From positions 1-64,000 of IMG/VR virus record IMGVR_UViG_3300009788_000106: a stretch of DNA of 64,000 bases, one strand, 5' to 3'. The notes below the pieces were generated by a model, which searched no databases, was not told the DNA's origin, and saw only the letters and a program-made list of their open reading frames with translations. How positions within the stretch are numbered: the stretch's first letter is position 1; each line of letters begins with the position of its first letter. The position numbers were made by a program, and so were the translations under genes. Source of the DNA: a virus. Shown piece by piece: positions 4,133 through 64,000 of this stretch.

Positions 4133-4137
4133 GACCC

Positions 4138-4166: not shown

Positions 4167-4190
4167 CAGAAAAAGACATGCCGGCGATTT

Positions 4191-4212: not shown

Positions 4213-4296
4213 CTGTGCGTACCATGTACCAGTAGCGAGATTCACGGTAACGCGCTTCCAGTGGGAGCACCTGGCAACTCTGATGGTGCCCTATCT

Positions 4297-41133: not shown

Positions 41134-41149
41134 CTTTGCCCCGTACTAT
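41121..41149 (+). promoter_or_regulatory. class II motif TGACTTGATTTGACTTTGCCCCGTACTAT
   Basis: Sequence read directly, 16 nt upstream of the folE ATG. Confidence 0.35.
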
Positions 41150-41165
41150 ACACCAAGGAGATCAA

Positions 41166-41747
41166 ATGGACGACGAGAGATTCACATGGAAGACTCAGTT
41201 ACGCTGTGCGCTGGCAAACATGATCGCGGCCACAAACCTATCCGCAGTGGTGGACCCTTCGCACCTTAAGGACACACCGGACCGGCTTGTCCGCATGTAT
41301 GACGAGATTTTTTGGGGCACCCGCAAGGACCCCGCAGCCGCACTAAACACTTCGTTTGCTGGGGACACCCATGACCAAATGATCATCGTTCAGGATGTGG
41401 AATTCACCAGTTGGTGTTCACATCACTTCTTGCCCTTTTCAGGCAAGTGGCACTTTGCCTATATACCAGGCGACTCCATCGTAGGGCTCTCCAAGATCCC
41501 ACGAATGATCGAAATACTGGCAGCCAGGCCCCAAGTCCAGGAAGGGCTCGCAGAGGACATAGTCGGAACATTCCAACAGACTGTACAGCCACTTGGTTGC
41601 GCAGTCGTCCTCGAAGCTACACACACATGCATGCAGGCCCGTGGCGTTCGCAAGAACGGTACCATGCGAACCACGGCCCTGCGCGGTGTGTTCCGTGACC
41701 CTCGGTCGTCCCACGTCAAGGCCGAATTTTTCACTGCAATCAAGTAA
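41166..41747 (+). CDS. folE: GTP cyclohydrolase I
   Basis: SWCSHHFLPFSGKWHFAYIP, the FolE active-site signature; RBS AAGGAGA. Confidence 0.8.
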   Translation: MDDERFTWKTQLRCALANMIAATNLSAVVDPSHLKDTPDRLVRMYDEIFWGTRKDPAAALNTSFAGDTHDQMIIVQDVEFTSWCSHHFLPFSGKWHFAYIPGDSIVGLSKIPRMIEILAARPQVQEGLAEDIVGTFQQTVQPLGCAVVLEATHTCMQARGVRKNGTMRTTALRGVFRDPRSSHVKAEFFTAIK

Positions 41748-47319: not shown

Positions 47320-48234
47320 ATGGCAAAACGCAAACCAACACTAGCATCCATACGGCAACGGCTGAAGCACGCCCCGCAAGACTGGCAACCTCGGTCCTAT
47401 ATTGACTTGGGTGAGCACTTGAATCCTGTGATGGGGCACGCCGACAAAGGGCTCCCCTATGGCTGTATCTGTGAAGTGTCCGGCAAGCCTTCTTGTGGCA
47501 AGTCCGTGTTCTGCGGAGACATAGCCGCGGCCTGCCAGGTACAGGACGGGGCCGATATCATTTGGCTGGACTGTGAAGACAGCTTTGAGCAACCGGCAAC
47601 CGAAGACGAAGGCTACTGGTTCCAGAAGCGCGGGCTGACTTGCCACGAAGGGGCCAAGAACTTCTACCTGATCAAACCCTACATTGGCAAGTTTGGGTCC
47701 ACTGAACGGTTGTCCTGCGCTCAGGACATGACTAAAGAGGCAGAGTCCCTGCTAGAGGCCCTGCACAACTACGACCCGAAGGGTAAGCGTGTCCTTGTCC
47801 TTGACAGTGTTGCTAACCTCATGCCAGCGGCCATGGGCGCGGCTGGGTTCGACCAGTCAATGAACACTGAGCAATCGCTACCGAAGTTCCTCGCGCTGCT
47901 CATGCGGCGCTGGGTGCCACTATTCAGGCAGTACAACACTGTCGGCCTATTCGTTAACCAGCTTCGTGAGAACCCCGGCCAAATGTTCGGGGACAAGACG
48001 TACACACCGGGCGGCAATGCCTTCAAGTTCGGCGCCCACGTCCGGGTTCGGATGCGTAAAATTATGTTGTTACCCTCCGCTAAGGTCAAGGGCAAAATAC
48101 TTGGCATTGGCGGCAGGATCAGGAATGACAAGAACAAGGCGGGTGGACTCGAACGGAGCGAGTGCGATTACAAGATCCTATTTCGTGGCGACTCCAAGTT
48201 CCTACCGGCAGGCACCATCAAGTACAAGAAGTGA
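47320..48234 (+). CDS. RecA-family recombinase/ATPase
   Basis: VSGKPSCGKSVFCGDIAAA (Walker A) and RVLVLDSVANLMPAAM (Walker B / RecA-like). Confidence 0.55.
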   Translation: MAKRKPTLASIRQRLKHAPQDWQPRSYIDLGEHLNPVMGHADKGLPYGCICEVSGKPSCGKSVFCGDIAAACQVQDGADIIWLDCEDSFEQPATEDEGYWFQKRGLTCHEGAKNFYLIKPYIGKFGSTERLSCAQDMTKEAESLLEALHNYDPKGKRVLVLDSVANLMPAAMGAAGFDQSMNTEQSLPKFLALLMRRWVPLFRQYNTVGLFVNQLRENPGQMFGDKTYTPGGNAFKFGAHVRVRMRKIMLLPSAKVKGKILGIGGRIRNDKNKAGGLERSECDYKILFRGDSKFLPAGTIKYKK

Positions 48235-48689: not shown

Positions 48690-49694
48690 ATGCAGGAAGT
48701 TCTTGCAAAGGCAGCACGACCAAAGCGGTTATCCAGACTACTAGGGCAGAAGTCCCTAGTAGGGGCCATACGGAAACGGATTGACAGCGGACGCATTCCG
48801 AAGGCATGGTTGTTCTCCGGGGAGACAGGCGCCGGGAAGACTACCATCGCCCGCATCATCGCATTGTCCTTTCAAATGGTCACGGGTGACTTCGGCGAAC
48901 CCGGACCTGACATGTGGTCTGAGTACGAGGGGTTCGACATTCGGGAGATCAACGCATCGGACATTAACGGCGTGGACGACATGCGCCAGCTTGCCCGGGA
49001 CGCTGCCTTCATGCCCCAGCCAGGTTCCCTCAAGAAAATCATCATCTTGGATGAGGCACACCGCCTCACCGCAGCGGCCCAGAACTGCCTGCTGAAACCG
49101 TTCGAGGACACGGCAAAGGACACCGTCTGGATTGTATGTACCACCGAACCCGGCAAGATCATCAAGACTCTTCGGGGCCGGTGCGCTCAGTTCGAAATGA
49201 AGGGCTTAAGGTCTGGTGGTATCAAGATGCTGCTCAAGCGGGCGGCAAAGGCCGTGGCCTACTCGGGTGAGTTAGACACGCTGGTGGATGTCCTGGATGA
49301 GCAGGGCGTGTCCAGCCCGCGGGTCATCCTCGGCATTTTCGAGCACTTCATTGCTGGCGGGGACGCAAATCAAGCTGTACTAGTCGGCGGCAATGAGGTT
49401 GACGGGTACGCATTCTCAAAGCTGGTCTGGGCGCGTGAGTGGGCCGAAGTTGCCCCGGTACTGAAGGAGGCCACTGCGGAGCAAATGCGGAACCTGAGGT
49501 TCTCAGTGGTGGGTTACCTGCGTGCCATACTGCTAAGCACGAACAACAACGCAAAGACTCGCGTGATGGCCGCTGGCGCGATCGACCGGCTCAGTGTGTT
49601 CCCGCCGCCTGAGGACGGCATGTTCCGGGCGTGGTTCCCATCGCAGGTGTACCAGAGCATCCGGTTCATGGCTGGTACGGCGGCCAAAAAGTGA
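48690..49694 (+). CDS. AAA+ clamp loader subunit (DnaX/RFC-like)
   Basis: GETGAGKTTIARIIA (Walker A), IIILDEAHRLT (Walker B), TLRGRCAQF (sensor / SRC-like). Confidence 0.7.
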   Translation: MQEVLAKAARPKRLSRLLGQKSLVGAIRKRIDSGRIPKAWLFSGETGAGKTTIARIIALSFQMVTGDFGEPGPDMWSEYEGFDIREINASDINGVDDMRQLARDAAFMPQPGSLKKIIILDEAHRLTAAAQNCLLKPFEDTAKDTVWIVCTTEPGKIIKTLRGRCAQFEMKGLRSGGIKMLLKRAAKAVAYSGELDTLVDVLDEQGVSSPRVILGIFEHFIAGGDANQAVLVGGNEVDGYAFSKLVWAREWAEVAPVLKEATAEQMRNLRFSVVGYLRAILLSTNNNAKTRVMAAGAIDRLSVFPPPEDGMFRAWFPSQVYQSIRFMAGTAAKK

Positions 49695-52456
49695 AGCCCG
49701 GTCTCCTGTTCACTGGAGACTGGCAAATGTCCTGGAGCAACCTGGCTCAAGTCGAGCAGGCGGTCAAGGACATTCTAACCATTCACCAGACCAAGCGGAA
49801 GCTAGAGGCGGTAGTTCACCTTGGTGACGTCAAGCACATTCTGAACCCTGTGGACCAGCGCGTGTCAAACAAGGCCATCGAGATCGTCAAACGGTTCAAG
49901 GGCCTCGGCATCCGGTTCCTAGTTCTCCTTGGCAATCACGACCGGCTCAGCATGTCCGATGAGTCTCAGGACTGGTTCCCTACCCTGGCAGCAGCCGGGG
50001 CCGAGACCTTCACAGACCCCGACGTCATCCACATCTCTGAGAACGACGTTCGGTTGTTTATGTTGCCATTCCGTCGTGACAAAGCTGCACTCAAGGTGAC
50101 CGCTGCTGAGTTCGGTTCCCTGGCCGACCCGTCAAATGGCATCCTGTGCTTTCATGAGGACGTGTCTGGTGCCAAGTACGATCGACAACGGGGCATCGAG
50201 TCCGGACTGTCACGCAAGGCCCTACACATGGACAAGTACATGTTTGCCGTCGGTGGGCACGTACACTTCCGCCAGAAGATCGGGCCGAACGGCTGGTACG
50301 CTGGCAGCCCCTTTGCGATGGATTGGGGCGAGTGCAACCAGCGCAAGGGATACTTGCTGTACTCTGAAGGGCGTATGTACCGCCTTAGCAGCAGCCTTCC
50401 GGGCTGGTACGACCCAAGTGTCGCCGGGTTCGACAAAGTGGCACCAGCGTCGTTCAAAGGCGCACGGGTCCGTATCAGGGTCAACTACCGCAAGGAGGAC
50501 CCCAACTATCAGCAGAAGCTGGACACCGCCCAGCGGTCGGCCTCGGAGAAGTACCCGGATGCCGAGATCGTTCTCGACCCGCGGCAACTCAAAACCGAGG
50601 TCGAGTCCATTGCAGCCGAAGGGGATGACGGGGACATCATTAAAGCGTTTCTGAAGGCAAACACTCCTAAGCCCTTGCGCGGCCAGGAAGGGGCCCTGCT
50701 GGCCTACTTGACTAACCGACTGGAGTTGACTGGTAAGTCACTGCGCAGGCAAGGTGCCATAGACATCACTCGCGTGGTGGGCCGGAACGCCATGTCGTTC
50801 GAGACCGTGGAAGTGCCAATGCAACCCGGCATCACAGTGGTCACCGGCAAGAACCTCGACTGGGATGGCCGGTCCAACGGGTCCGGGAAGACCTCCTTGC
50901 TCCACTTGATCCCGATTGCGCTAGAGGGGAAGACCCTGAAGGGGCAGAAGCACGATGGATGGGTTCGTGAAGGCAGCACCGGGCCGGCCACGGTAGGCCT
51001 CGAAATGAGGTTGCCCGACGGGTCAACCTTCGAAGTATATAGGCAGCGCCGCCCCACGCGGTTGACTGTGATGCACAATGGTCAGGACATTTCGACCGGC
51101 ATGGGGCAAGCCGACACCCAAAAACGAATCCAGGAACTAACCGGCATGACTTGGGACATCTTGACGAATGCGGTATTTATCGACCAGCTACAGGTGAACG
51201 CTCTGCTACATGGGACGCCCACCGACCGCAAGAAGCTGCTTGCTCAGTTCCTAAACATTGAACGGTTCGAGGACGCGCAACAGGTTATCCGCAATGAGAT
51301 CCGCTCCGCGCAACGGTTCATGGAAGAATGGGATGAAGAAGTCGAAGCATCCCAGGTGGAGATAAGGCGTTACAGGGAGTTCATTAAGGACTTGGTGCTA
51401 CCAGACACCAAGGCGCTGCGCACGCAACTGGCGGGCCTCAAACGGGCGGCAAAGACCCAACAGGAGAACGTCGACCAGTGGCAACAGTACCTTGACGACT
51501 TGCCACCACAGCCGAACCCGGATGACGTGCGAAACTACACGACATCAGTCGGTCGTGTGGCTGGCAGGATTTTTGCCCTTGAGGACCAGATCTCTGAAGC
51601 TGAGGGCCAGCCCGACAAGTGCCCGACGTGTGGACAGAAGCTAAACCAAGTCAAGGTCCCACCACAGGCAAAGGCAAAGGCCGAACTCAAGAAGTGGAGA
51701 GTGACGCACAAGCAACTAAAGGGCGAGCTTGCCAAGGCGCAGCAGGAGAAGGAGGAGTGGGCCGACGACAGGCGGGAGGCCCTGATCAATCTCACAGCGG
51801 CACGGGCAAGGCTCCGAACCACCAAAGCCGAGCAGGCAGCGCCCCTGGCCCTACTGGCAGCAGCAGAGCAGGTTGAGACCAAGCGATCCAAGTACCAGAG
51901 CCTCAAGCGGGTGAACATGGCAAACCTTAAAATCTTCAAGCAAGGCGTCGTGGACATGGGACTAGAGGTCGAGTTCCTCAAGTTCGCGGCAGAGGCCTTT
52001 TCGCGGAACGGTGTGCCGGCATTCATCATGGCCGAGCTATGCCCCCGCCTCACCGCAGCTGCTGACTACTATTCGGACCTGTTCTCCGACGGGGAAATCA
52101 CGGCCACCTTTGCCATGGACAAGTCCGACATCGACGTCCAGATTATCAACCAACATGGCGGCCCCAAGATCGAGGACCAGTCTCGCGGCGAGACCAAAAT
52201 GGCTTCCCTGATCCTGTCCTTCGCCCTGCGGGACGTGACTAACCCGTGCAACATTCTGATCGCTGACGAACCCGGCGACGGGCTGGACGAAGTGAACGCC
52301 CGCCAGTTTGCCCGAGGCCTCAAGAAAGTCAAGCAAAGGTTCCCGGTCATACTGGTATGTACTCATGACCCACACATCCTTGCCGAGTTGTCCGGTGAAC
52401 GGCAAGCGACAATTATTAAGCAGAACGGAGTATCAGAGGTCACATATGGCAGCTAA
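49691..52456 (+). CDS. fused SbcD(Mre11)-SbcC(Rad50) nuclease/ATPase in one polypeptide
   Basis: N-terminal metallophosphatase motifs (LLFTGDWQ, HLGDVKH, LLGNHDR, GGHVH), then ABC ATPase Walker A GRSNGSGKTSL, coiled coil with zinc hook CPTCGQ, and C-terminal ILIADEPGDGLDE (Walker B / D-loop). GTG at 49691 overlaps the upstream stop. Confidence 0.65.
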   Translation: MKPGLLFTGDWQMSWSNLAQVEQAVKDILTIHQTKRKLEAVVHLGDVKHILNPVDQRVSNKAIEIVKRFKGLGIRFLVLLGNHDRLSMSDESQDWFPTLAAAGAETFTDPDVIHISENDVRLFMLPFRRDKAALKVTAAEFGSLADPSNGILCFHEDVSGAKYDRQRGIESGLSRKALHMDKYMFAVGGHVHFRQKIGPNGWYAGSPFAMDWGECNQRKGYLLYSEGRMYRLSSSLPGWYDPSVAGFDKVAPASFKGARVRIRVNYRKEDPNYQQKLDTAQRSASEKYPDAEIVLDPRQLKTEVESIAAEGDDGDIIKAFLKANTPKPLRGQEGALLAYLTNRLELTGKSLRRQGAIDITRVVGRNAMSFETVEVPMQPGITVVTGKNLDWDGRSNGSGKTSLLHLIPIALEGKTLKGQKHDGWVREGSTGPATVGLEMRLPDGSTFEVYRQRRPTRLTVMHNGQDISTGMGQADTQKRIQELTGMTWDILTNAVFIDQLQVNALLHGTPTDRKKLLAQFLNIERFEDAQQVIRNEIRSAQRFMEEWDEEVEASQVEIRRYREFIKDLVLPDTKALRTQLAGLKRAAKTQQENVDQWQQYLDDLPPQPNPDDVRNYTTSVGRVAGRIFALEDQISEAEGQPDKCPTCGQKLNQVKVPPQAKAKAELKKWRVTHKQLKGELAKAQQEKEEWADDRREALINLTAARARLRTTKAEQAAPLALLAAAEQVETKRSKYQSLKRVNMANLKIFKQGVVDMGLEVEFLKFAAEAFSRNGVPAFIMAELCPRLTAAADYYSDLFSDGEITATFAMDKSDIDVQIINQHGGPKIEDQSRGETKMASLILSFALRDVTNPCNILIADEPGDGLDEVNARQFARGLKKVKQRFPVILVCTHDPHILAELSGERQATIIKQNGVSEVTYGS

Positions 52457-52892: not shown

Positions 52893-53151
52893 GACTGAAC
52901 AGGAAGAGATAGCCCGCCTCCGCAAGCGAACCAGCAGCCCAAGCCAGATCGAGGCGCGCAGGCGTGGTGGCCTAGCCCTCGACAAAATCCATGGCAAGGC
53001 TCATAGACGGAAGTTCACCCGGCGCGGTGGACAGACAGTGGTGCTAAAATATGGGAATGAGTACATGCGGCAACTCGGGCGTAAAGGCGGCTTGGCCACA
53101 CAGGCGAAGCTCAGGAAAGAGGCAGCCAGTGGCAAAGAATCCGAAGGGTAG
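52885..53151 (+). CDS. KGG-repeat (stress-protein-like) small basic protein
   Basis: RRRGGLA...RRGGQTV...RKGGLATQAKLRKEAASGKESEG repeats of the KGG motif type. Confidence 0.45.
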   Translation: MPETEQEEIARLRKRTSSPSQIEARRRGGLALDKIHGKAHRRKFTRRGGQTVVLKYGNEYMRQLGRKGGLATQAKLRKEAASGKESEG

Positions 53152-53686
53152 CACATTCGAGAACCAGACAGCCAAAGACGTGATTGCGGCCTTGGCACCC
53201 CAGAACGCCCAGCGGGACGAGATCTTTCGTACACCGCTTTCGGGCGGTCACCCATATGCCCCGTCGGGCGACCTCATTGTTGCCGACCGCCTCCGCCCGT
53301 GGTTCCCCTTCACAGTGGAGTGCAAGAACTGGAAGTCGTGGAAGGCCGGTAGCTTCTGGAATCCGCGGAAGCAGGACATCAGTTGGTTGAACCAGACCAT
53401 GCGCGAGTGCGAGGATGGCCCGGATGGTAACCGGCCCCTACTGGTATGCAAGGGCAACTTGACGGGGTCGTTCGCAATCATCCCCAAGCGAGCATTTGAC
53501 TCGCTCCAGTGGGCAACGCCATTCGTGCCACGGTTTTTGTTCAAGGTAGGCGGCAGAGTCTGGGTCCAGATCGCATGGGAGGACTTCCTCATCGCCCTTG
53601 GTCAACGCGCCACGGCCAACAAGCCATTCTCGCTGGACTGCTACAAGTTTGAGCGCAAGCCACGCAAACGCCGCCTCCGCTTCTAA
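53129..53686 (+). CDS. Hjc-like PD-(D/E)xK nuclease (putative Holliday junction resolvase)
   Basis: KGSTFENQTAKDVIAAL...SGDLIVAD...FTVECKNWK matches the Hjc pattern. GTG start is inferred. Confidence 0.4.
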   Translation: MAKNPKGSTFENQTAKDVIAALAPQNAQRDEIFRTPLSGGHPYAPSGDLIVADRLRPWFPFTVECKNWKSWKAGSFWNPRKQDISWLNQTMRECEDGPDGNRPLLVCKGNLTGSFAIIPKRAFDSLQWATPFVPRFLFKVGGRVWVQIAWEDFLIALGQRATANKPFSLDCYKFERKPRKRRLRF

Positions 53687-53708: not shown

Positions 53709-54317
53709 ATGAGAATTACGAAAGACTTCAAATTTGAGGCGTCGCATGTTGTTCCGGGGCATCCTGGCAAGTGCCAGAGATTGCACGGCCATTCGTACGT
53801 CCTGCACATCACAGTCCATGGCACTGTACACCCGGCCACCGGGTTCATCGTGGACTTTGGGGACATCAAAGCCATGGTCCAGCCACTGATCGATACCCTC
53901 GACCACCGGCACCTAAACTTCTTCATTGCGAATCCCACCGCCGAGAACATTGCGGCATGGTTCGGCCAGCGCCTATCCCGTATCGTGGATCGCTACGCCA
54001 TCACCGGGCTGGAAGTCACAGTGCTTGAGACGGCCACGTCCAGCGCCACATGGGACTCCCGGCTGGAAGTCGATGCCAAGCACGGGCAGAACCCTTCAAT
54101 CTACGGCACGGGCATTCCAGTGGCCCATGATGGCCTGTCGCCCCAAGCCCAAATCGGCCCGGTCATCATCCCAGCGGCAGAGTACGAATCCTACATGACC
54201 ACCTTCCGGCTAGCCCGCCGAGCCTGCGCCCGGAGGATCAACCTAATCCGCGAGCACGGGCGGGAGTTGCTGCCGGCAAAGTACATGAACCAACTCGGTA
54301 CAGTGAAGGAGCAATAG
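53709..54317 (+). CDS. queD: 6-carboxy-5,6,7,8-tetrahydropterin synthase
   Basis: CQRLHGHSY (Cx3HGH) plus catalytic His/Glu pattern typical of the QueD/PTPS fold. Confidence 0.8.
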   Translation: MRITKDFKFEASHVVPGHPGKCQRLHGHSYVLHITVHGTVHPATGFIVDFGDIKAMVQPLIDTLDHRHLNFFIANPTAENIAAWFGQRLSRIVDRYAITGLEVTVLETATSSATWDSRLEVDAKHGQNPSIYGTGIPVAHDGLSPQAQIGPVIIPAAEYESYMTTFRLARRACARRINLIREHGRELLPAKYMNQLGTVKEQ

Positions 54318-55082
54318 GTGAAATTTCCCATCGCAGAACAGTTCATCTCACTACAAGGCGAAGGCCGGTATACCGGTACACTCATGCAGTTCATCCGCCT
54401 GGCTGGCTGCAACGTCGGCCGACGCACCGGAGTTCGGAGTCCGGCTCTGGCACAGTCATTGGCCCTGCCGGTCTTTCAGCACCATAAGGTGTGCGAGTCC
54501 GCCATCGGGCAAGAGTTCATGTGCGACACGGACTACGGTGCCAAGTTTGACTTGACAGCCCTACAAATGGCAGACCTGATCCGCAAGTCCGGTACCAAGC
54601 ACGTCTGCCTAACAGGCGGTGAACCTCTGCTACACGATGTCCTCATGGTCTCGGCGCTGTGCCAGGAGTTACAGGTCCAGCTTCACATTGAGACGTCTGG
54701 GACCAAGGTAATCCCCGACGAGCTCAGTGCTGACCACGTCGCCTGCTCGCCGAAGGCCGGGTTCCTATTTGAGAATTGGGGGCACGTGGATGAGTACAAG
54801 TTCGTCATCGGCCCCGATGCCGGGACCCCGAGTGACATTGTAGGTAAGCTAACTGGGTTCTTCGCTTTGGGTATTGCCGCCCGGCAGCAGGACGACCCAG
54901 ATCAAGACCAGTTTGCGCCGACTGAGACCCCGGCGAACCCGTTTGCCGATGTGTACGTCCAGCCAGTGAACGGGGTGCGCACAGTGGACGCCTCAAGCAT
55001 GGCAACCTGCCTGGCCGTGGTCCGGCTGCGGCCTCATTGGGCTGTGTCCTTCCAGACTCACAAACTACTTAATCTGCCCTAA
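54318..55082 (+). CDS. queE: 7-carboxy-7-deazaguanine synthase with atypical Cys spacing (C-x27-C-x9-C)
   Basis: N-terminal ISLQGEGRYTGTLMQFIRLAGCN and CDTDYG are QueE hallmarks. A 27-residue insert sits between the first and second cluster cysteines. Confidence 0.65.
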   Translation: MKFPIAEQFISLQGEGRYTGTLMQFIRLAGCNVGRRTGVRSPALAQSLALPVFQHHKVCESAIGQEFMCDTDYGAKFDLTALQMADLIRKSGTKHVCLTGGEPLLHDVLMVSALCQELQVQLHIETSGTKVIPDELSADHVACSPKAGFLFENWGHVDEYKFVIGPDAGTPSDIVGKLTGFFALGIAARQQDDPDQDQFAPTETPANPFADVYVQPVNGVRTVDASSMATCLAVVRLRPHWAVSFQTHKLLNLP

Positions 55083-55096: not shown

Positions 55097-55125
55097 TTGA
55101 CGTCTCGGCAAAACCGTGTCACTAT
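55097..55125 (+). promoter_or_regulatory. class I promoter TTGACG-N17(TCTCGGCAAAACCGTGT)-CACTAT
   Basis: Sequence read directly, upstream of the vWA gene. Confidence 0.45.
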
Positions 55126-56261: not shown

Positions 56262-56280
56262 AGCTCAGGCAAAATAGTAG

Positions 56281-56309
56281 TTGACATTTGCCGGTTTGCC
56301 TGGCACTAT
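56281..56309 (+). promoter_or_regulatory. class I promoter TTGACA-N17(TTTGCCGGTTTGCCTGG)-CACTAT
   Basis: Identical over about 45 nt to the copy at 60233. Confidence 0.5.
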
Positions 56310-56325
56310 TGGTTAGAGGTTAAAA

Positions 56326-57399
56326 ATGAAAAAGTCGCAAATCAGAAAGCTCATCCCGAAGGTACCGGACCTAAGACGGGCGCACAAGGCACTCATCACC
56401 GCCGACGTGACCGACAGGGTCATCGCCCTCCGCACGGTCATGGATTGGTTTGATGTGTATACCACCTTGGTTCGATCTCAGGTCATCGCCGCAGGCGGGC
56501 AACGCAAACTGGACCTGGCAGCTAAGATCAAACCTCTGGCAGCGCGGCACGACACTCCGGCATTCGAGGCCGAGACCGCACTGATTCAGGCTATCCGCAT
56601 GTTGGAGTCGGCGCTGGCACCAGCGGTCCCTACCCTCAAGCTACCTCGGATCAATGACGCATGGGCCGAGTACGAATCAAAGAAGATTGCGCTGGAGCAC
56701 AAGGCAGCGAAGGCCATAGTAAAGTTTGCTGCTCTCAAGGCCGGGCTGGACCAGTTCTTCAAACCCTTGGGACTAACCTTTAAGTTTAGCAAGGACCTTC
56801 CCAAGCCCCGGCAGTTCGACGCCACTGGCCGCGTCCTGTACTCCTTCGACTACGCTGGCACCTTGGTGCAAGAGCTCAAGGCCAATGGCTTGGACTCGGT
56901 CCTCATGGGCCAAGCCCCGGCAATCCTCAAGGCGGCTTCGCTTTCAGTCAGCAACGGCAAGCTCTTAATCTCAATGGCCAAGCTCATGGACTTGTTACCG
57001 GGCCTGCTGGTTTCCATCTACGGGCTGGGGGCAAGTAGCAAGAGCACGTCAACGCCCGCTACGGCGCCTCCGGCAACGCCTAAGGCCACACCGACACCGA
57101 ACCCGACCCCAACGACGCCGAAGCCCCCGAAGGCCACACCAGCCCCGCCGATAGGTGGACTGAGTCCTGAGGCTGCCAAGTACTTCCGGGCTGGCACGCA
57201 ACAGCTTTTGTTCGACCGCCTCATCAAGGTAGCAGGCGGGCGCATTTCCATGGCCGACTTGTACGACGGCCTGAGCGCGGGCGACCCCCGCCGCATGATC
57301 CTCAGCATCCACCAGAAGGGCGTGAAGCTCGGACTGTGGGAGGCAAACCGCTACGGCAAAATGGTACACTTTGATTGGACAGGAGGACCGCACGTATGA
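56326..57399 (+). CDS. hypothetical protein with a Pro/Thr-rich linker
   Basis: ORF with RBS GAGGT; a TPATAPPATPKATPTPNPTPTTPKPPKATPAPP linker separates two domains. Confidence 0.45.
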   Translation: MKKSQIRKLIPKVPDLRRAHKALITADVTDRVIALRTVMDWFDVYTTLVRSQVIAAGGQRKLDLAAKIKPLAARHDTPAFEAETALIQAIRMLESALAPAVPTLKLPRINDAWAEYESKKIALEHKAAKAIVKFAALKAGLDQFFKPLGLTFKFSKDLPKPRQFDATGRVLYSFDYAGTLVQELKANGLDSVLMGQAPAILKAASLSVSNGKLLISMAKLMDLLPGLLVSIYGLGASSKSTSTPATAPPATPKATPTPNPTPTTPKPPKATPAPPIGGLSPEAAKYFRAGTQQLLFDRLIKVAGGRISMADLYDGLSAGDPRRMILSIHQKGVKLGLWEANRYGKMVHFDWTGGPHV

Positions 57400-58301
57400 A
57401 AATGTCCGCTGCCGAAATTGCCAAGCTACCCAAAGGTGTCTTGGCAACCGAGAGGTGTGACAGTCAAAGATGCGGCAAGCCGCTGATTGGCCTGCTCATC
57501 TGGCGTTCAAAGGACAGGGCTCACGCCTACTGTTCAAACGCCTGTTTTGAAGAATCCGAACCAGCAAGATCGAGCGGTGGCGAACCCACCAAAAAAGGAG
57601 ACAAAACCATGATTAGCAAAGGCAAGAAACGCAACAAGAAGGCCGCCGCCGCACCCGAGGTGGATGAGGAAGAGGACATGATGGAAGAGGAGGAAATGGA
57701 GGACGAGGACGAGACCCCAGCACCGAAGCAGAAGGCCAAAAAGAAACGCAAGTCGAAGCCGGCCCCGGTCGAGGAGGACGAGGACGAGGACCCGGAGGAC
57801 GAGGAGGACGAGGACGAGGACGAGGAGGACGACCCGGAGGACGACCCGGAGGACGACCCGGAGGACGACCCGGAGGACGACCCGGAGGACGACCCGGAGG
57901 ACGGCGACGACTCCGATGAGGAGGACCCGGAGGATGAGGAGGACCCGGAGGAAGAGACCGTGCCGGTCAAGGTCAAGAAGCCACGGGGCAACCGGGTCAA
58001 ACCTGGCAACCCGACCAAGAAGGTCACCGCCAAGGAACGCAAGGCGAACCTCAAGGCCATGAAGGGCAAGACCAGTCCGTTCCGCGCCGGGACTCGGTGT
58101 GACATGCTGTTTCGGAAGCTGGCCTCGGGCAAACGGTTCAAAAGCATGGATACCCTTGTCAAGGGGATCGACCCGCCGCCCGGAGATCCGCAGCGTATGG
58201 TCAGTATGATCCGCGCCAAGGGTCTTGAGAATGGCCTGTACACCATCGTGAACGACGCTGGTTCCTGGCAGATGACCGAGAACCACTTGGCAACTGACTA
58301 G
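57396..58301 (+). CDS. Cys-cluster protein with a highly acidic repeat core (6x DDPE) and a basic C-terminal domain
   Basis: N-terminus CDSQRCGKP...HAYCSNAC; a KKRKSKPAPVEEDEDED module as in the 46047 product; 12-nt repeat gacgacccggag x6 at about 57829-57900. Confidence 0.45.
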   Translation: MKMSAAEIAKLPKGVLATERCDSQRCGKPLIGLLIWRSKDRAHAYCSNACFEESEPARSSGGEPTKKGDKTMISKGKKRNKKAAAAPEVDEEEDMMEEEEMEDEDETPAPKQKAKKKRKSKPAPVEEDEDEDPEDEEDEDEDEEDDPEDDPEDDPEDDPEDDPEDDPEDGDDSDEEDPEDEEDPEEETVPVKVKKPRGNRVKPGNPTKKVTAKERKANLKAMKGKTSPFRAGTRCDMLFRKLASGKRFKSMDTLVKGIDPPPGDPQRMVSMIRAKGLENGLYTIVNDAGSWQMTENHLATD

Positions 58302-58315
58302 CCAGCCACGCAAGG

Positions 58316-58338
58316 GAGGGTCACCATGGCCCTCCCTG
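58316..58338 (+). terminator. hairpin GGGAGGGtcaccatggCCCTCCC
   Basis: Perfect 7-bp stem 14 nt after the stop; same family as 56236 and 60268. Confidence 0.35.
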
Positions 58339-58454
58339 AGGAGTACTCATGGACACTTATGACAAGCTGCTAATTCGGAACTGGCGTTTACGTTGCGCCC
58401 TACTGATCGGCATTTGCTTGCGCTTGGTGAGCATGGTACTGGAAGGGATCGCAA

Positions 58455-58922
58455 ATGCTTCCTAGAGGCAAACCGGACTTCAAACACCCGCAGCGGATCA
58501 AGTTGCCGCCCCGGCAAGGATGGGTCCAGACTGGTCTACTCATTTTCCTGAGCGGCAACCAGCTTGTCTCAATCGCAGATGAGGTCCTCGAACGTTGCCT
58601 CGGCGAACCACTGGACGGGCGTAAAGTTTGCCTCAAGATCCACTGGAAGCCGCGGCGGATCGCTCTGGTCCTGTGGCCATGGTTCAAGGAGCTTACGGAC
58701 CCTTCTGAGCCAGACACGTTCCACTTATGGCGTCGGTCGCACAGGATGACAAAGCACAGCATGTACTTCAAGGCTCCACACTTGCGGGAGCTACTTGGGA
58801 TTGACAACACGAAGCCAGCAGTGGGCTATCCGCTGCACGCCCTGGCCGGGCGCATCCATGTGAACATCAGGACGCCCATTACGCCGGTGTACAAGAACGG
58901 GAAGGGGAGAATGCAACAATGA
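58455..58922 (+). CDS. hypothetical protein (155 aa)
   Basis: Plus-strand ORF preferred over the overlapping minus-strand ORF on composition grounds. Confidence 0.35.
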   Translation: MLPRGKPDFKHPQRIKLPPRQGWVQTGLLIFLSGNQLVSIADEVLERCLGEPLDGRKVCLKIHWKPRRIALVLWPWFKELTDPSEPDTFHLWRRSHRMTKHSMYFKAPHLRELLGIDNTKPAVGYPLHALAGRIHVNIRTPITPVYKNGKGRMQQ

Positions 58923-59566
58923 CGGAAGGGCAAGTGAGAGAATGGCTATCAAGCATGGTGGACTCCGGGCAATGGACCGGGCATACCGATTGGTGGCAAC
59001 ACGAGCGACTCAAGGTGAGTGTGCACGAAATAGATGGCAAGATCCTACTCATGCGCGGCGATGGCCTACATGTACCAGTGCCACGCAAGTACTCCATCAG
59101 CGGGATCGAAAAGGCCCTGAGGTACTGCCCGCTGTGCAAGGCACATGACGTGGACACATACCAGTTCGGGGAATCCAAGCGGCAGGCCTGTATCCCTTGC
59201 CGGTTTGATGGGATAGCCGAAATACTGGTCGGTGAAGAAGTCAAAGACCGAATCGGCACCCGCGTACAACTGAGGCACGCTGTTGGAGAATTCAAATTCA
59301 TAGGCAAGGGCAAGGTTTACCGGGTCATGGCCACGATGGCAGCTTATGGCAGATTCAATTTGGAGTGCGTAAGGACCGGTGCCAGGCTCACCGCGGATCT
59401 CCACGGCACCGACGGCTCCCGGTATGACTTCCACAAGACCCTCGACTCAGGCAGCCAGCCAGCCATGTACGAACCGCCTGTTCCCGATGTGGACTGGAAG
59501 GACAAGTGGCGGCAAGTCTGGAAAGAGAAACGGGTAATGCACGATGGGACGGAGCTATCATGCTAG
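58919..59566 (+). CDS. hypothetical protein with CxxC...CxxC zinc-ribbon-like motif
   Basis: YCPLCKAHD...ACIPCRFDG. Confidence 0.4.
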   Translation: MTEGQVREWLSSMVDSGQWTGHTDWWQHERLKVSVHEIDGKILLMRGDGLHVPVPRKYSISGIEKALRYCPLCKAHDVDTYQFGESKRQACIPCRFDGIAEILVGEEVKDRIGTRVQLRHAVGEFKFIGKGKVYRVMATMAAYGRFNLECVRTGARLTADLHGTDGSRYDFHKTLDSGSQPAMYEPPVPDVDWKDKWRQVWKEKRVMHDGTELSC

Positions 59567-59775
59567 GCGTGGTCACTGGTATCGCTGTGGTGCTGCTGGT
59601 GCTCTTGCTGATCGCCGCATGGGCACTGAAGCAACACTGGGCCTTCAAACGCCGTATGGACCTTGTACTGCATGTTATCAACGGGTACCCGCCTCTGCCG
59701 GACCCGCTGCCGGACGTGCCAAAGCGGACGAGGGACCAATGGTCAAAGCAAAGAAAGGAACAGCATGCCGATTAA
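59560..59775 (+). CDS. small membrane protein (one TM helix)
   Basis: MLGVVTGIAVVLLVLLLIAAWAL; ATG overlaps the upstream stop. Confidence 0.4.
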   Translation: MLGVVTGIAVVLLVLLLIAAWALKQHWAFKRRMDLVLHVINGYPPLPDPLPDVPKRTRDQWSKQRKEQHAD

Positions 59776-60229
59776 GCAACTACTCACGATTGAAGTTGAG
59801 ACCCCGGATGGCTACCCTCAGGAGTCTCTAACCGCAGACATTGAAGGCCACCTTAAACGCCAGGTCCAACAGCTATGCGAGTTCCAAGCAAGGCGTATCG
59901 GTATGTGTGGGGTCGTGGCCGACTCCGAGACCCCGCCGACATTCCGGCTGGTGGTCGAGGAGCAGTGTGCCTTGGTGCCAGTGACCCGCACGCAGGAACT
60001 CATAAGCCGCTGGGCCATTGACGAGCTGAAGGCAACCGGCACACCGGAGACCCTGCCACTGGTCGAGAATAGCCTACTCATGATGCCGCTTCGCTGGGTG
60101 TGCCAGGCCAAGCTATTCATCGCCCTGATCGAGACGTACCCGGTGCTGAAGAAGCAGCCGGACTGGGTGCGCACGGCAATGACCCTGGCGGGGAAGGTTC
60201 AAACACAGTTCGGTCTCACGGCAAAATAG
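59765..60229 (+). CDS. hypothetical protein (154 aa)
   Basis: ATG at 59765 within the ORF 59663..60229. Confidence 0.4.
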   Translation: MPIKQLLTIEVETPDGYPQESLTADIEGHLKRQVQQLCEFQARRIGMCGVVADSETPPTFRLVVEEQCALVPVTRTQELISRWAIDELKATGTPETLPLVENSLLMMPLRWVCQAKLFIALIETYPVLKKQPDWVRTAMTLAGKVQTQFGLTAK

Positions 60230-60232
60230 TAG

Positions 60233-60261
60233 TTGACATTTGCCGGTTTGCCTGGCACTAT
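60233..60261 (+). promoter_or_regulatory. class I promoter TTGACA-N17(TTTGCCGGTTTGCCTGG)-CACTAT, followed by hairpin GGGAGGcaaaaacaaCCTCCC (60268-60288)
   Basis: Sequence read directly; duplicate of the 56281 copy, including the upstream GGCAAAATAGTAG. Confidence 0.5.
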
Positions 60262-60315
60262 TGGTTTGGGAGGCAAAAACAACCTCCCAGCCGCAAGGCA
60301 AGAAAGGTTAATATC

Positions 60316-60468
60316 ATGAATCCGAAAGACAGACGGAACCAGAAGCGGGCGCGCGTTGCCAAGCACCTTCGGCGTAAGGCGGACAAGTTCCGCTACAAGG
60401 GCGCATCCGACCGGACCGTTGACCGGCTGAACCACGAGCGCCGGGCTACGCACACTCAGGAGGCCTAG
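60316..60468 (+). CDS. small basic protein (50 aa)
   Basis: MNPKDRRNQKRARVAKHLRRKADKFRYKG..., downstream of a class I promoter and hairpin. Confidence 0.3.
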   Translation: MNPKDRRNQKRARVAKHLRRKADKFRYKGASDRTVDRLNHERRATHTQEA

Positions 60469-60469
60469 C

Positions 60470-61372
60470 GTGCCGAAGGTTTGCTACACTACCAAGGCGT
60501 TCAACCCGGTCCACACCGCGGCGATCCAGAACGCAAACGCAATACTTCATGAGTACCAGCAGCAGGGCTTCACCCTGACCCTGCGGCAGCTGTACTACCA
60601 GTTCGTCGCACGGGGCATCCTGGCCAACGACCAGAAGAACTACAAGTGGATCGGGGACGTCCTTGGGGACGCACGGCTGGCCGGGCTGGTTGACTGGCAC
60701 CACCTTGAGGACCGAACCCGCAACCTGCGTGGCAATCAGCACTGGGCTTCACCGGCTCAACTAGTGTCGCACACGGCAAGCTCATTCAAGATCGACAAGT
60801 GGGCGGACCAGCCGTATCGAGTCGAGGTCTGGATCGAGAAGGATGCCTTGCTCGGCGTGCTGGACTCGATCTGCCCTAAGCTGGACGTGGACTACTTCTC
60901 ATGCCGGGGCTACACCAGCCTATCTGAAATGTGGAAGGCCGGGCAACGGCTGAAGCGATCTGCCGAGCAAGGCAAGAAGGTGGTGGTGCTACACTTCGGT
61001 GACCACGACCCCAGCGGCATGGACATGTCCCGGGACATCCTGTCTCGGCTCAGGCTGTTCATGGATGAGACCGGCACGGAGATACGGGTTCTCCGCTGTG
61101 CCTTGAACATGGCCCAGATTGACCGGCTGAACCCTGTGCCGAACCCGGCAAAGCTCTCTGACAGCAGGGCCAAGCGATACATTGCCGAGTATGGCTCAAG
61201 CTCATGGGAACTGGATGCCTTGGACCCGCGGGAACTGGTCCGGTTGATCAAGGCCGGGGTCACCAAGTTCCGGGACGATGAGCGATGGTACGCGGCTCTT
61301 GCCAGGGAACAGGCCGGCAGGCACCAGCTCTCACGGGTCGCCGAGGCCATGGCCGCAGGACAATTTGAATAG
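60470..61372 (+). CDS. Topoisomerase VI subunit A / Spo11-like mini-A protein (winged-helix Tyr plus Toprim)
   Basis: LRQLYYQFVARG (5Y-CAP-like tyrosines); Toprim glutamate VEVWIEKDALLGVL; DxD motif VVLHFGDHDPSGMDM. Confidence 0.5.
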   Translation: MPKVCYTTKAFNPVHTAAIQNANAILHEYQQQGFTLTLRQLYYQFVARGILANDQKNYKWIGDVLGDARLAGLVDWHHLEDRTRNLRGNQHWASPAQLVSHTASSFKIDKWADQPYRVEVWIEKDALLGVLDSICPKLDVDYFSCRGYTSLSEMWKAGQRLKRSAEQGKKVVVLHFGDHDPSGMDMSRDILSRLRLFMDETGTEIRVLRCALNMAQIDRLNPVPNPAKLSDSRAKRYIAEYGSSSWELDALDPRELVRLIKAGVTKFRDDERWYAALAREQAGRHQLSRVAEAMAAGQFE

Positions 61373-61382
61373 GAGGCAACAC

Positions 61383-61763
61383 ATGGGATTAGACTCAGCA
61401 AAAGATCACGAAGGAACTGGCAAGAACTGTTCGCTGGACCACTGGTGCGGCGGGCCTGACGCCCTCCCTTGCATGCCGTGGTCAGAGGCACCAGAGGCAC
61501 CAAACGTGCCACAGGACGACGACGGCAACGAGTGGTCCGATGAGGACCGGCAACTCACTCTGCAGGACAAAGTGCGCATGGTGGCCTCCGACGGCTCACT
61601 GTTCGAGTTACCAATGGAGTCCTTCATAGCCAGTGTCAAGCGCCTGACCCTCGAACTGGACTTGGCAACCGTCGCCAGTCAGCTCGGTGTCGACCTCGGC
61701 GGCAATGACACGGCCTGCGCGTACACCGGCTGCGACTGTGCCAAGGACGACATTGGCATTTAA
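61383..61763 (+). CDS. hypothetical protein (126 aa)
   Basis: ATG after GGAGGCAACAC. Confidence 0.4.
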   Translation: MGLDSAKDHEGTGKNCSLDHWCGGPDALPCMPWSEAPEAPNVPQDDDGNEWSDEDRQLTLQDKVRMVASDGSLFELPMESFIASVKRLTLELDLATVASQLGVDLGGNDTACAYTGCDCAKDDIGI

Positions 61764-61787
61764 GGCAAATCAGGGGAGGTAACACCA

Positions 61788-62009
61788 GTGCCAATAGCAA
61801 GCGAATCAGCACTCAGGACTAAGGCCGGAGTCAGGCAACTACTGCAAGGCGTAAACCGGTCCACCAGACTCAAGATTGTTGCCGACGTCGTGGCAGACCT
61901 TGAATTCAGTCACGCGCATTTGTTGCACGACGAGCTAGTACGGATTGTGACCGGGCAGCACTACCCCGACTACTACCAGAAAGTACCCGACACAAGGTTT
62001 ATCGTGTGA
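61788..62009 (+). CDS. hypothetical protein (73 aa)
   Basis: GTG after GGGGAGGTAACACCA. Confidence 0.35.
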   Translation: MPIASESALRTKAGVRQLLQGVNRSTRLKIVADVVADLEFSHAHLLHDELVRIVTGQHYPDYYQKVPDTRFIV

Positions 62010-62024
62010 TCAGCAAATCAGGGC

Positions 62025-62053
62025 TTGACAGCCAGGCAAAACAGGAGTAACCT
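62025..62053 (+). promoter_or_regulatory. class I promoter TTGACA-N17(GCCAGGCAAAACAGGAG)-TAACCT, then tagtc-ATG (leaderless)
   Basis: Sequence read directly. Same tagtcATG junction as the minus-strand copy at 3772. Confidence 0.45.
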
Positions 62054-62058
62054 TAGTC

Positions 62059-62364
62059 ATGGTCAACAACAGCAACTTCACAATCGAAATCAAAGATGAT
62101 ACCGAACTCGGCATGGCCGTGGTTTTGGTGGACATAGACGAGGCCCCTGGCATCGACGCAACAAGCGAGGTCGTCGGCGTGGTGGGGACTCTGAATGAAG
62201 CCGAACAAGTGATCGGCGACGACTACTTGGCTCGCGTCACCGGTTGCAACGACACCCAGAAGGACGCACCGAGCCAGTATCGGGTGCAAGCAAGAGGCCG
62301 CGGCGGCGAGTACTTTGACCTGCTGACTTGGTCCAGCGAACGGTGCTACGCCGAGTGCATGTAA
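62059..62364 (+). CDS. hypothetical protein (101 aa), leaderless
   Basis: ATG 5 nt after the -10. Confidence 0.4.
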   Translation: MVNNSNFTIEIKDDTELGMAVVLVDIDEAPGIDATSEVVGVVGTLNEAEQVIGDDYLARVTGCNDTQKDAPSQYRVQARGRGGEYFDLLTWSSERCYAECM

Positions 62365-62373
62365 AGGAGATCG

Positions 62374-62688
62374 ATGCCGAAACAAGAACTGAAACTGAAG
62401 CACCCCGAGCGCCTATGGGTGCTGTCTGTTGAATACACCGAAGGTGGTGGCTCTGAGGTCTGGTGGCCAGTCAACAACCCGCCATGGAGACTGTACGAGG
62501 CAGGGGAAGAGTTCGAGATCACCTTTGCCCGCTCCGTTGACGGCAAGGTGGTGCTTATGGAACTGAGGGATGAGCAGGGCCGGCATGCGGGCTGGGACGT
62601 TGACAAGTGCCCCGCCGAACGCTCGGATTCGGACGACTTGTTTGAGCTTTGCCCCGTACCATGTAACAAACCGGAGACCACCGCATGA
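62374..62688 (+). CDS. hypothetical protein (104 aa)
   Basis: RBS AAAGGAGATCG. Its 3' end contains a class II motif (62647-62662). Confidence 0.4.
   Translation: MPKQELKLKHPERLWVLSVEYTEGGGSEVWWPVNNPPWRLYEAGEEFEITFARSVDGKVVLMELRDEQGRHAGWDVDKCPAERSDSDDLFELCPVPCNKPETTA
62647..62662 (+). promoter_or_regulatory. class II motif CTTTGCCCCGTACCAT
   Basis: Sequence read directly. Confidence 0.35.
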
Positions 62689-62915
62689 TCATCATTACGG
62701 AAGACGGCAGAGCACTACAAGGACGGATCAGCCAGACCCTGCTGAGGCCGGAGCAGGCGGCAAAGTCAAATGAGTTCCTGGACAAGTGGTTCGCATGGTA
62801 CGACCGCAAGACGGCCAGCCGGATCAGCAAGGACCCTGAGGTCCTCAAGGCCGCGGACAGGGCAGTCCGGCAAGAGCTTGAAGACTACGACAACGGGAGC
62901 ACAGACGATGTGTAA
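62685..62915 (+). CDS. hypothetical protein (76 aa)
   Basis: RBS GGAGACC. Confidence 0.4.
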   Translation: MIIITEDGRALQGRISQTLLRPEQAAKSNEFLDKWFAWYDRKTASRISKDPEVLKAADRAVRQELEDYDNGSTDDV

Positions 62916-63240
62916 CGAACCAAGGCTTCACCCAGACCGGCACAACACTGGTCATGCCCCTAGTCACGACCGTGGGCAGGACTCGACCGTTGACCGGATC
63001 TCGCACGCCATGCCGTTCGATCTCACACCGGACCCCAAGCCACCACTAACGTTCGAGGAGGCGAAGGCACTGCTTGCCAAGTGGGACAAGGAGTACAAGG
63101 ATGCCAAGGTGCTCATGGACCTGTGCAGACGCATGGCGGAGTTTGCCACGCAGCGACCGCGGGAAGGCCGCCTTACCAGTTACAGGGCCTTTACCGAACC
63201 GCTGAAGGCATTGCTGGACAAGCAAACGCCTGGCACCTAG
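62908..63240 (+). CDS. hypothetical protein (110 aa)
   Basis: ATG overlaps the upstream stop (ATGTGTAA). Confidence 0.35.
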   Translation: MCNEPRLHPDRHNTGHAPSHDRGQDSTVDRISHAMPFDLTPDPKPPLTFEEAKALLAKWDKEYKDAKVLMDLCRRMAEFATQRPREGRLTSYRAFTEPLKALLDKQTPGT

Positions 63241-63280
63241 CCGCTGGATTGCGTTTCCCGCAGGCACAACTCAAGGGGCA

Positions 63281-63465
63281 AAGGGGAAGAGAACCAAGGG
63301 AGAAGGGAAGGCAAAATGAGACGCTAACGGCGATAACCAACTCGGGCAAGACAGGTAGACGGGCGCTGCTCCAGACAATAGGGGCAAGGCGTCTAATACC
63401 TGTTAGGGGCAACACACCGGGGCAGAGGAGACAGAGGACTACAGAGTGACTAGGGAACCAGCAGG
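63281..63465. repeat. five dispersed copies of an AGGGGCAA-like 8-mer (with one degenerate copy) in a 260-nt non-coding region
   Basis: caAGGGGCAAAgg, atAGGGGCAAGg, ttAGGGGCAACa, ccGGGGCAGAgg, gcAGGGGCAAAg. Confidence 0.35.
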
Positions 63466-63502
63466 GGCAAAGCCCTAAACCAAGTAGAAGGAGTACACAG
63501 CC

Positions 63503-64000
63503 ATGATAAAGAAAGCCCAATCGCGGCAGAACCGGCAAAAGGGTAGTAAGGCAAAACCCAAAAAACGATCGGCAGGCGCTGCCTCGACGACCACCAAAAC
63601 ACGGACTACGAGGGTCGGCACGAAATCCAAGGCTTCTGCCGGCAAGCCCATTGCCAAGGCGGCAAAACCGATACATTCAAAGAAGGCAACGGCAAAGAAG
63701 AAGGCACCGGTAAAGTTGAGACCGGTACCGGCAAGGCCAAAGGCAAAGGCAACGGTAAAGAAGAAGGCAAAGAAGTCCAGTATCGGGCCGGTCTCAGCGG
63801 CAAGACTCAAGAAGGCAAATGCCGCCACCAAGGAGGCCACCAAGGGCTTACCGAAGATGCCAGTCGGCAAGAAGTCAGCGGCCGACCAGTTGGCAGAACA
63901 ACAGGCGGCAAACCTCAAACAGAGTGCCAAGCACCGGGACCATCAGGCAAAGCTGGTTGCTCAGGTCAAGGGCGAGTGCGAGGATGTGCCGGTCAAGCGG
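63503..64000 (+). CDS. lysine/alanine-rich histone-H1-like basic protein, 3'-truncated by the window end
   Basis: RBS AGAAGGAG. The frame is open to the window end; the product is rich in KKxAKK/AKPKA. Missing from the ORF track because no stop is reached. Confidence 0.5.
   Translation, partial: MIKKAQSRQNRQKGSKAKPKKRSAGAASTTTKTRTTRVGTKSKASAGKPIAKAAKPIHSKKATAKKKAPVKLRPVPARPKAKATVKKKAKKSSIGPVSAARLKKANAATKEATKGLPKMPVGKKSAADQLAEQQAANLKQSAKHRDHQAKLVAQVKGECEDVPVKR

Follow-up and report, generated by a model that had tools for sequence, protein, structure and literature searches.

A stand-alone Mini-A gene of the topoisomerase VI-A/Spo11 type in an uncultured phage genome

The gene at positions 60,470 to 61,372 of a 64,000-nucleotide stretch of viral DNA (IMG/VR record IMGVR_UViG_3300009788_000106, positions 1 to 64,000; here called the window) encodes a protein of 300 amino acids (aa). 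Judged from its sequence, the gene is an ordinary member of the Mini-A family, which has already been described and is annotated in databases. The result is therefore a re-identification and no discovery. Mini-A was published as a subfamily of type IIB topoisomerases by Takahashi, Da Cunha, Krupovic, Mayer, Forterre, and Gadelle (NAR Genom Bioinform 2019/2020; PMC7671362). Its marks are an RxxY/FY motif, a Toprim glutamate, a DxDxxG motif, and an xWELDAL T2BI box, the last of which discriminates it from Topo VI and Topo VIII. In that paper, Mini-A genes are reported from viruses and proviruses, without a B-subunit gene close by, and the role of the proteins is given as unknown (PMC7671362). 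Here, we describe the evidence for this assignment and weigh what the protein may do for its phage.

Family membership and active-site motifs

The window protein matched PHROG 6247 ("DNA topoisomerase") over residues 3 to 294 with an E value of 2e-101, far beyond chance. In tblastn searches, it was 42% identical to gp49 of Pseudomonas phage NP1 (96% coverage; E value, 7e-65). The protein of Listeria phage LWP01 was 46% identical. The NP1 and Listeria proteins are both exemplars in the alignment figure of the Mini-A paper (PMC7671362). All Mini-A features that can be read from a sequence were found in the window protein, namely, homology, length, RxxYY, the glutamate, DxDxxG, xWELDAL, viral origin, and the lack of a B subunit. 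The viral origin is evident from genes for the terminase large subunit, portal, prohead protease, and major capsid protein. Thus, the preliminary description of this DNA, which had read the product as a stand-alone mini-A protein like Topo VI-A and Spo11, was correct on identity, by homology to the family as well as by its signature motifs. Compared with the published subfamily, the window protein shares the length of about 300 aa, the truncated 5Y-CAP domain joined to a Toprim domain, the same four motifs, and encoding by a virus without a B subunit. No difference of substance was found. The window protein is at most 50% identical to any protein in the cultured-phage collection searched, and its phage is uncultured and carries a 7-deazaguanine gene set.

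Relatives are numerous. By tblastn, they were found in 85 phage records, all at less than 60% identity and many annotated "DNA topoisomerase." These included Pseudomonas phage NP1, PaMx25-like phages, Chi-like Salmonella phages, Xylella phages Sano and Salvo, Roseobacter phage RDJL Phi 1, Pseudanabaena phage Pam3, Listeria phage LWP01, Bacteroidales phages, and the haloarchaeal virus HCIV-1. In a word-indexed search, 7,999 of the 8,000 scored candidates reached an E value of ≤0.001. An exhaustive search returned 11,788 representatives of 50%-identity clusters at an E value of ≤1e-3, with 7,683 of them at ≤1e-10. At least 586 IMG/VR contigs encode Mini-A relatives.

Some deposited records contain the gene in split or shortened form. 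In Parabacteroides phage PDS1, it is broken into gp28 and gp29 (locus L008 of our set, 3959-4845), annotated "DNA topoisomerase" and "DNA primase," and the RDJL Phi 1 gene (L006:5001-5857) was matched in two pieces. These split records stem from frameshift or sequencing error. In other relatives (P0121, P0131, P0137, P0144, P0186, P0232, P0237, and P0270), the protein runs 100 to 160 aa past the long terminal helix. By eye, these C-terminal extensions are acidic tails, CxxC zinc-ribbon repeats, or Lys/Arg-rich tails, and a Pfam scan of them found no domain.

The three motifs named in the preliminary description were all present in the 300-aa open reading frame (ORF): LRQLYYQFV at aa 38 to 46, VEVWIEKDALLG at aa 118 to 129, and LHFGDHDPSGMDM at aa 174 to 186. 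A fourth motif, SWELDAL at aa 245 to 251, had been left off that list. Each of the four was retained in 257 to 267 of the 270 retrieved homologues, with WELDAL in 257. In alignment A2, which spans siphophages of many phyla, Cellulophaga phage phiSM, and the haloarchaeal sphaerolipovirus HCIV-1, the invariant positions were R39, Y43, R84, E123, K124, G147, S150, D178, P181, G183, R209, Y237, and E247. R39 and Y43 were also invariant in alignment A1.

These residues were compared with subunit A of Topo VI (Top6A), using only the residues printed in PDB alignments. The window motif TLRQLYY (aa 37 to 43) corresponds to TLRELYY (residues 100 to 106) of M. mazei Top6A, in which Y106 is catalytic, and the RxxxY spacing at 39 to 43 recurs at 102 to 106 in both S. 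shibatae and M. mazei. For the Toprim glutamate, WIEKDA (E123) corresponds to VVEKDA of S. shibatae (E209) and to E202 of M. mazei. The Toprim aspartate pair in GDHDPSG (D178/D180) corresponds to TDADPYG and TDGDPWS (D254/D256) in Top6A. E247 of SWELDAL was equated by motif position with E342 in KKAEQQAF of M. mazei. Both Toprim motifs of Mini-A and Top6A were also paired independently by hhalign. At the level of motifs read from sequence, the match of the Tyr, Glu, and DxD residues of Mini-A to the Top6A active site is clear.

The AF2 model of the window protein (pLDDT, 81.8) places N-terminal helices at residues 13 to 31, 38 to 47, and 55 to 70 and predicts the two-domain fold of a winged-helix (5Y-CAP) domain followed by a Toprim domain. 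A Foldseek search against BFVD gave nothing useful. Relative to Top6A (PDB 1D3Y, 2ZBK, 2Q2E, and 9O0G), Mini-A is about 65 to 90 aa shorter and lacks the N-terminal Top6B-binding segment. The spacing between motifs is 84, 55, and 69 residues, compared with 100 to 107, 52, and 88 to 100 in Top6A. The plasmid-borne Topo VIII resembles Mini-A in being encoded by a mobile element, in lacking the N-terminal part of 5Y-CAP, and in its cleavage motifs. However, Topo VIII has a fused or adjacent B-type ATPase and the signature RVELNAM, whereas Mini-A has WELDAL. In ORF35 of HCIV-1 (L009:3920-4951), the second Toprim aspartate is replaced in D-F-N (DxD to DxN), and the T2BI box, NVELNAL, is nearer the Topo VIII signature.

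Inteins provide a further line of evidence. Four homologues of 653 to 712 aa (P0166, P0167, P0212, and P0229), each representing a separate 50%-identity cluster, contain Hint/LAGLIDADG inteins of about 350 to 365 aa. The junction, RVE|C...HN|CWVEKDA, lies three residues before the Toprim glutamate and at the same site in all four (window aa 119/120, about nucleotide [nt] 60826). Inteins are typically located in the active-site motifs of important DNA enzymes. Thus, their position at the Toprim motif argues that Mini-A is an active and important enzyme.

Search for a B subunit and conserved neighbors

The lack of a B subunit, also put forward in the preliminary description, was borne out. With PHROGs and Pfam, no GHKL ATPase was found among 42 further ORF products of the window, a set that leaves out a 1,467-aa tape-measure-like ORF and in which a very divergent B subunit could escape hidden Markov models. 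The window is part of a phage genome: positions 1 to 6225 of metagenome contig L092 equal window positions 57776 to 64000, and the contig continues for another 4.1 kb with small ORFs and a 683-aa protein. Among the five ORFs of this extension, there was again no GHKL ATPase. The 683-aa protein was considered as a hidden B subunit and rejected, as it has a signal peptide, a fiber-like composition, and no Pfam match. In this respect, Mini-A differs from Top6A, which has a GHKL/transducer partner.

To look for a conserved partner gene, a census was made of 92 loci (80 from IMG/VR, 11 annotated phage loci numbered L001 to L011, and the window), in which 9,251 ORFs were clustered all against all; higher-ranking clusters that were shadow ORFs inside the Mini-A gene were discarded. 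Within 10 kb, the commonest neighbors were three helicases, one of the SNF2 type (19 of 92 loci), one UvrD-like (8 loci), and one further SF2 helicase (7 loci), together with integrases (about 14 loci) and a PAPS-reductase-like protein (8 loci). No real neighbor family occurred in more than 19 of the 92 loci. Likewise, 10 annotated phage neighborhoods had no common neighbor. Upstream genes there included a DUF2786 protein (Pam3 and RHph_TM26), endolysin, DNA polymerase, a kinase, and an "excisionase," and downstream genes included Sak4, ThyX, and the small terminase subunit. Nor were the small ORFs that precede Mini-A in the window, NP1, SPN19, and LWP01 related to one another. Since no gene is kept next to Mini-A in the 92 loci, an adjacent, dedicated "Mini-B" is argued against, and at BLAST-level sensitivity, such a partner is unlikely. 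By the sequence evidence, Mini-A is a portable, stand-alone gene.

One arrangement was seen in two unrelated phages. Pam3 gp40 (L001:4953-5981) and RHph_TM26 gp072 (L004:3988-4986) are homologous DUF2786/DUF7168 proteins of about 335 aa. Their genes lie directly upstream of Mini-A, with ends overlapping the Mini-A start, and have no counterpart in the window.

The genomic context claimed in the preliminary description was present in the window, including a 7-deazaguanine gene set, a 941-aa SbcD-SbcC fusion, and a UvsX/RecA-like protein. Genes for a DpdA-like transglycosylase, FolE, QueD, and QueE point to 7-deazaguanine DNA modification, although QueC was not recognized among the window ORFs scanned. 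DpdA and Mini-A are both present in Nipunavirus-like phages, as in the window. A general tie between Mini-A and 7-deazaguanine modification was considered and rejected: Mini-A is missing from the 9g-like phages that have DpdA, no DpdA match was obtained in Chi-like phages with Mini-A, and Que genes are rare nearby.

Possible mechanism and competing explanations

The chemistry, gating, and biological role of Mini-A given here are what we infer from Topo VI and from context. The protein would most likely act as a homodimer without an ATPase subunit. Y43 in the winged-helix domain would attack a DNA phosphodiester positioned by Mg2+ bound to Toprim residues E123, D178, and D180. The product would be a 5'-phosphotyrosyl protein-DNA link with a free 3'-OH, and the break could be resealed. 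In Topo VI of M. mazei, an electrostatic clasp between R102 and E342 holds the catalytic tyrosine off the Toprim acidic triad, and an E342Q mutant hyper-cleaves (2026 cryo-electron microscopy; PMC13040014). Because the clasp residues R39 and E247 are invariant in Mini-A, its cleavage is probably gated and not constitutive. An R39-E247 salt bridge would keep the tyrosine off the metal site, as in Topo VI, and the geometry of the DNA, or a factor from the host or phage, might release cutting.

Such an enzyme could introduce a controlled nick or double-strand break into the phage's own DNA and thereby start concatemer-forming replication. By one route, the 3'-OH would prime rolling-circle synthesis; by another, a double-strand break would be resected and used for recombination-dependent replication. 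This initiator role is proposed with low to moderate confidence, for three reasons. First, Mini-A sits in early replication/recombination modules. In the window, it comes last in the early replication/recombination region, after the replisome, UvsX, SbcDC, and RusA, and it is found within replication/recombination modules of NP1, Phobos, RDJL Phi 1, PDS1, and LWP01. Second, skuldviruses have no other candidate replication gene, and a role as rolling-circle initiator has already been proposed for their Mini-A in the literature. Third, an A dimer without an ATPase has no evident route for strand passage. The likeness to HUH rolling-circle Rep proteins is functional only, in that both would form a tyrosine 5'-phospho-protein link that leaves a 3'-OH primer. 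The fold and metal site of Rep are unrelated to those of Mini-A, and origin nicking by Mini-A is so far hypothetical. In full, that is, a Mini-A protein with covalent tyrosine chemistry, clasp gating, and a controlled break that starts concatemer-forming replication, the explanation is our preferred one. It is offered tentatively, as one that is somewhat more apt to fail in some part than to hold in all of them.

Several observations weigh against this explanation. The match to Pfam PF04406 (TP6A_N) was confined to aa 25 to 45 around the tyrosines and scored 13.7 bits against a cutoff of 26. No Pfam or NCBIfam model reached its threshold for the window protein. Among 28 diverse Mini-A members, PF04406 was touched in 3 and PF21180 in 2, all below threshold. 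The structural comparison proposed in the preliminary description recovered the two-domain fold, but Foldseek matches to the PDB were weak (E value, about 1e-2) and mixed with generic Rossmann-like folds. In hhalign, A2 aligned with a two-sequence Top6A profile over the Toprim half only (E value, 0.024). PDB sequence searches with the single sequence and with the A1 and A2 profiles returned nothing beyond chance matches to tyrosine phenol-lyase. None of the window's neighbor genes recurs around the 91 other loci, and Que genes come within 10 kb of Mini-A at only about 4 of them. The context therefore says little about role, and the link to hypermodified DNA, SbcDC, and RecA drawn in the preliminary description does not hold in general. 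Nothing ties Mini-A to an origin or a specific site, and the full recombination set of the phage could start replication without a dedicated break-maker. Finally, no experiments on any Mini-A were found in the literature up to mid-2026, in which its function is still called unknown or hypothetical.

The strongest alternative, though an unlikely one, is a minimal ATP-independent topoisomerase. Here, a Mini-A dimer would cut and reseal a duplex, relaxing supercoils or unlinking genomes before packaging, with no programmed break. Mini-A is homologous to the cleavage subunit of a true decatenase, retains the clasp residues R39 and E247, which are associated with religation, is widespread in phages with their own replisomes, and already bears the database name "DNA topoisomerase." However, it has neither an ATPase gate nor the N-terminal, B-binding part of the 5Y-CAP domain, and there is no precedent for strand passage by an A dimer that lacks two gates. 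The host's gyrase, Topo I, and Topo IV are at the disposal of these phages. As the sole replication candidate in skuldviruses, Mini-A looks more like an initiator than a helper.

A Spo11-like break-maker, the idea of the preliminary description, would be a special case of the preferred explanation. Mini-A would produce protein-capped double-strand breaks, SbcD-SbcC, the homologue of Mre11-Rad50, would uncap them, and UvsX would use the ends for recombination-dependent replication. The Spo11-type fold and tyrosine of Mini-A fit this idea, as does the presence in the window of genes for SbcD-SbcC, a UvsX-like recombinase, RusA, and an exonuclease. The SbcD-SbcC fusion is a single-chain analogue of Mre11-Rad50. 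Nevertheless, within 10 kb in the 91 other loci, no homologue of SbcDC or RusA was found and UvsX had a single match. The recombination sets of other Mini-A phages also differ (Sak4 and Cas4 in NP1; NinB/NinG in PDS1). Spo11 itself (PDB 8URU) acts together with Top6BL-like proteins and further partners, and Mre11-Rad50 removes its covalent ends; for Mini-A, a partner and such processing would both be hypothetical. The Spo11-like proposal is thus improbable. In its most elaborate form, Mini-A would be the viral counterpart of Spo11, a clasp-gated enzyme that makes programmed, protein-capped breaks without a partner, with uncapping by SbcD-SbcC and recombination-dependent replication launched by UvsX. 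We consider this form decidedly improbable; if true, it would represent a self-contained version of the meiotic break-and-repair pathway in a prokaryotic virus, possibly near the ancestral state of type IIB enzymes.

Mini-A might instead be a Toprim nuclease of the JetD/MksG or OLD kind that cuts by hydrolysis, with no covalent intermediate; it would then destroy the DNA of the host or of competitors, or act against a host defense. The comparison with JetD made in the preliminary description is imprecise: the two have the Toprim half in common, but MksG/JetD has no catalytic Tyr in its 5Y-CAP-equivalent domain (PMC10123090), whereas R39 and Y43 are invariant in Mini-A. The matches to JetD/MksG were limited to 137 aligned residues, all in the Toprim half, compared with 179 to 197 residues for Top6A and Spo11. 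No JetD-type Toprim match (DUF2399, or DUF3322/DUF2220 at the N terminus) was obtained for the window protein, and some homologues gave sub-threshold, Toprim-local matches. JetD/MksG works with an SMC complex as a defense nuclease (Wadjet/MksBEFG), but Mini-A has retained the tyrosine and is a stand-alone protein of phages. No JetA/B/C (MksB/E/F) operon was found in the window, where the neighbors of Mini-A are small ORFs of unassigned function, and PADLOC returned no match for the window protein or its neighbors. A nuclease of this kind is therefore very improbable.

The last alternative, a catalytically inert DNA-binding or architectural protein, agrees with the label "DNA binding protein" given to the Mini-A homologue in Microbacterium and Curtobacterium phage records, but it is extremely improbable, given that the tyrosine, the acidic residues of the Toprim domain, and the glutamate of the clasp are invariant across very distant members and that inteins are inserted at the active-site motif.

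The preliminary description had also suggested that the protein could form genome ends. Because the phage encodes a terminase large subunit, this is unlikely.

Gene structure, phage context, and significance

The coordinates of the gene and of the features discussed are given in Table 1. The 300-aa gene was called identically by independent gene callers on two metagenome contigs, L092 and L093 (ENA ERZ27251120 and Logan SRR5210996), which encode an identical Mini-A protein. On both, the order of the 50-aa, 300-aa, and 126-aa genes is as in the window. The 50-aa ORF and Mini-A are probably cotranscribed because the stop codon of the former lies so close to the Mini-A start. No homologue of the 50-aa ORF was found around the 91 other Mini-A loci, and PHROG and PADLOC gave no match for it.

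Upstream of these genes, the 47-nt element is a candidate promoter, proposed from its sequence, of the transcription unit holding Mini-A. TTGACA-N17-CACTAT occurs four times in the window, compared with 0.17 expected, and every copy lies just upstream of an ORF start. The sites are probably a family of phage promoters or operators, and Mini-A is probably in its own promoter-driven unit.

Table 1. Features of the window, with positions in nucleotides
Feature	Position	Strand	Details
Mini-A gene	60470..61372	+	300 aa; GTG start; TAG stop included; ORF list and PHROG 6247 match
Shine-Dalgarno AGGAGG	60458..60463	+	6 nt ahead of Mini-A GTG
N-terminal winged-helix/truncated 5Y-CAP domain, about aa 1-105	60470..60784	+	T37-L-R39-Q-L-Y42-Y43; AF2 helices
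R39	60584-60586	+	Within TLRQLYY
Y43, putative catalytic tyrosine	60596-60598	+	TLRQLYY versus M. mazei TLRELYY
Toprim domain, about aa 114-225	60809..61144	+	E123 (60836-60838); D178-H-D180-P-S-G (61001-61018)
T2BI box SWELDAL, aa 245-251	61202..61222	+	Mini-A signature; E247 at 61208-61210
Long C-terminal helix, aa 270-295	61277..61354	+	AF2, pLDDT >90; homologues extend variably beyond
Upstream 50-aa basic ORF	60316..60468	+	Stop codon 1 nt ahead of Mini-A start
Downstream 126-aa ORF, function unassigned	61383..61763	+	Same orientation; not kept beside other Mini-A genes
47-nt element with TTGACA-N17-CACTAT and inner hairpin TGCCGGTTTGCCTGGCA	60220..60266	+	Exact direct-repeat copy at 56268-56314
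Further TTGACA-N17-CACTAT site	4138-4166	-	
Further TTGACA-N17-CACTAT site	55097-55125	+	
Terminase large subunit	4261-5688		
DpdA-like transglycosylase	40111-41133		
FolE	41130-41747		
UvsX-like protein (UvsX/RecA-like)	47320-48234		
SbcD-SbcC fusion	49631-52456		Single 941-aa ORF; SbcD-like aa 55-244, SbcC-like aa 333-939
RusA	53051-53686		
QueD	53709-54317		
QueE	54318-55082		

The window also encodes a full replisome and an exonuclease. A 308-aa protein (57375-58301) combines a Cys-rich motif in its N-terminal part, a long tract rich in Asp and Glu with a sixfold PEDD repeat, and a basic C terminus; the PEDD tract corresponds to a 12-nt tandem repeat in the DNA at 57825-57912. No family match was obtained for this protein, which could mimic DNA or be histone-like. 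A family-2 glycosyltransferase of 547 aa (14961-16604) is encoded within the head/tail structural module, and a radical-SAM protein (583-1554, + strand) is encoded at the left end of the window. On the opposite strand, a 695-aa SNF2-type helicase (1700-3787, - strand) lies behind a TTGACA-N17-CACTAT site.

The window adds one more example of Mini-A and no new kind of object, and it makes the function of the family no more testable than do the cultivable phages that carry the gene. Since the cleavage-restraining clasp of Topo VI, an Arg-Glu pair, is invariant in Mini-A, an E247Q-type mutant should trap the reaction. With about 11,800 clusters at 50% identity, Mini-A is among the commonest phage DNA-metabolism genes without a known function, and it is carried by whole phage groups, including Chi-like and other Casjensviridae, Nipunavirus, and Xiamenvirus. 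These proteins also bear on the origin of Topo VI and Spo11.

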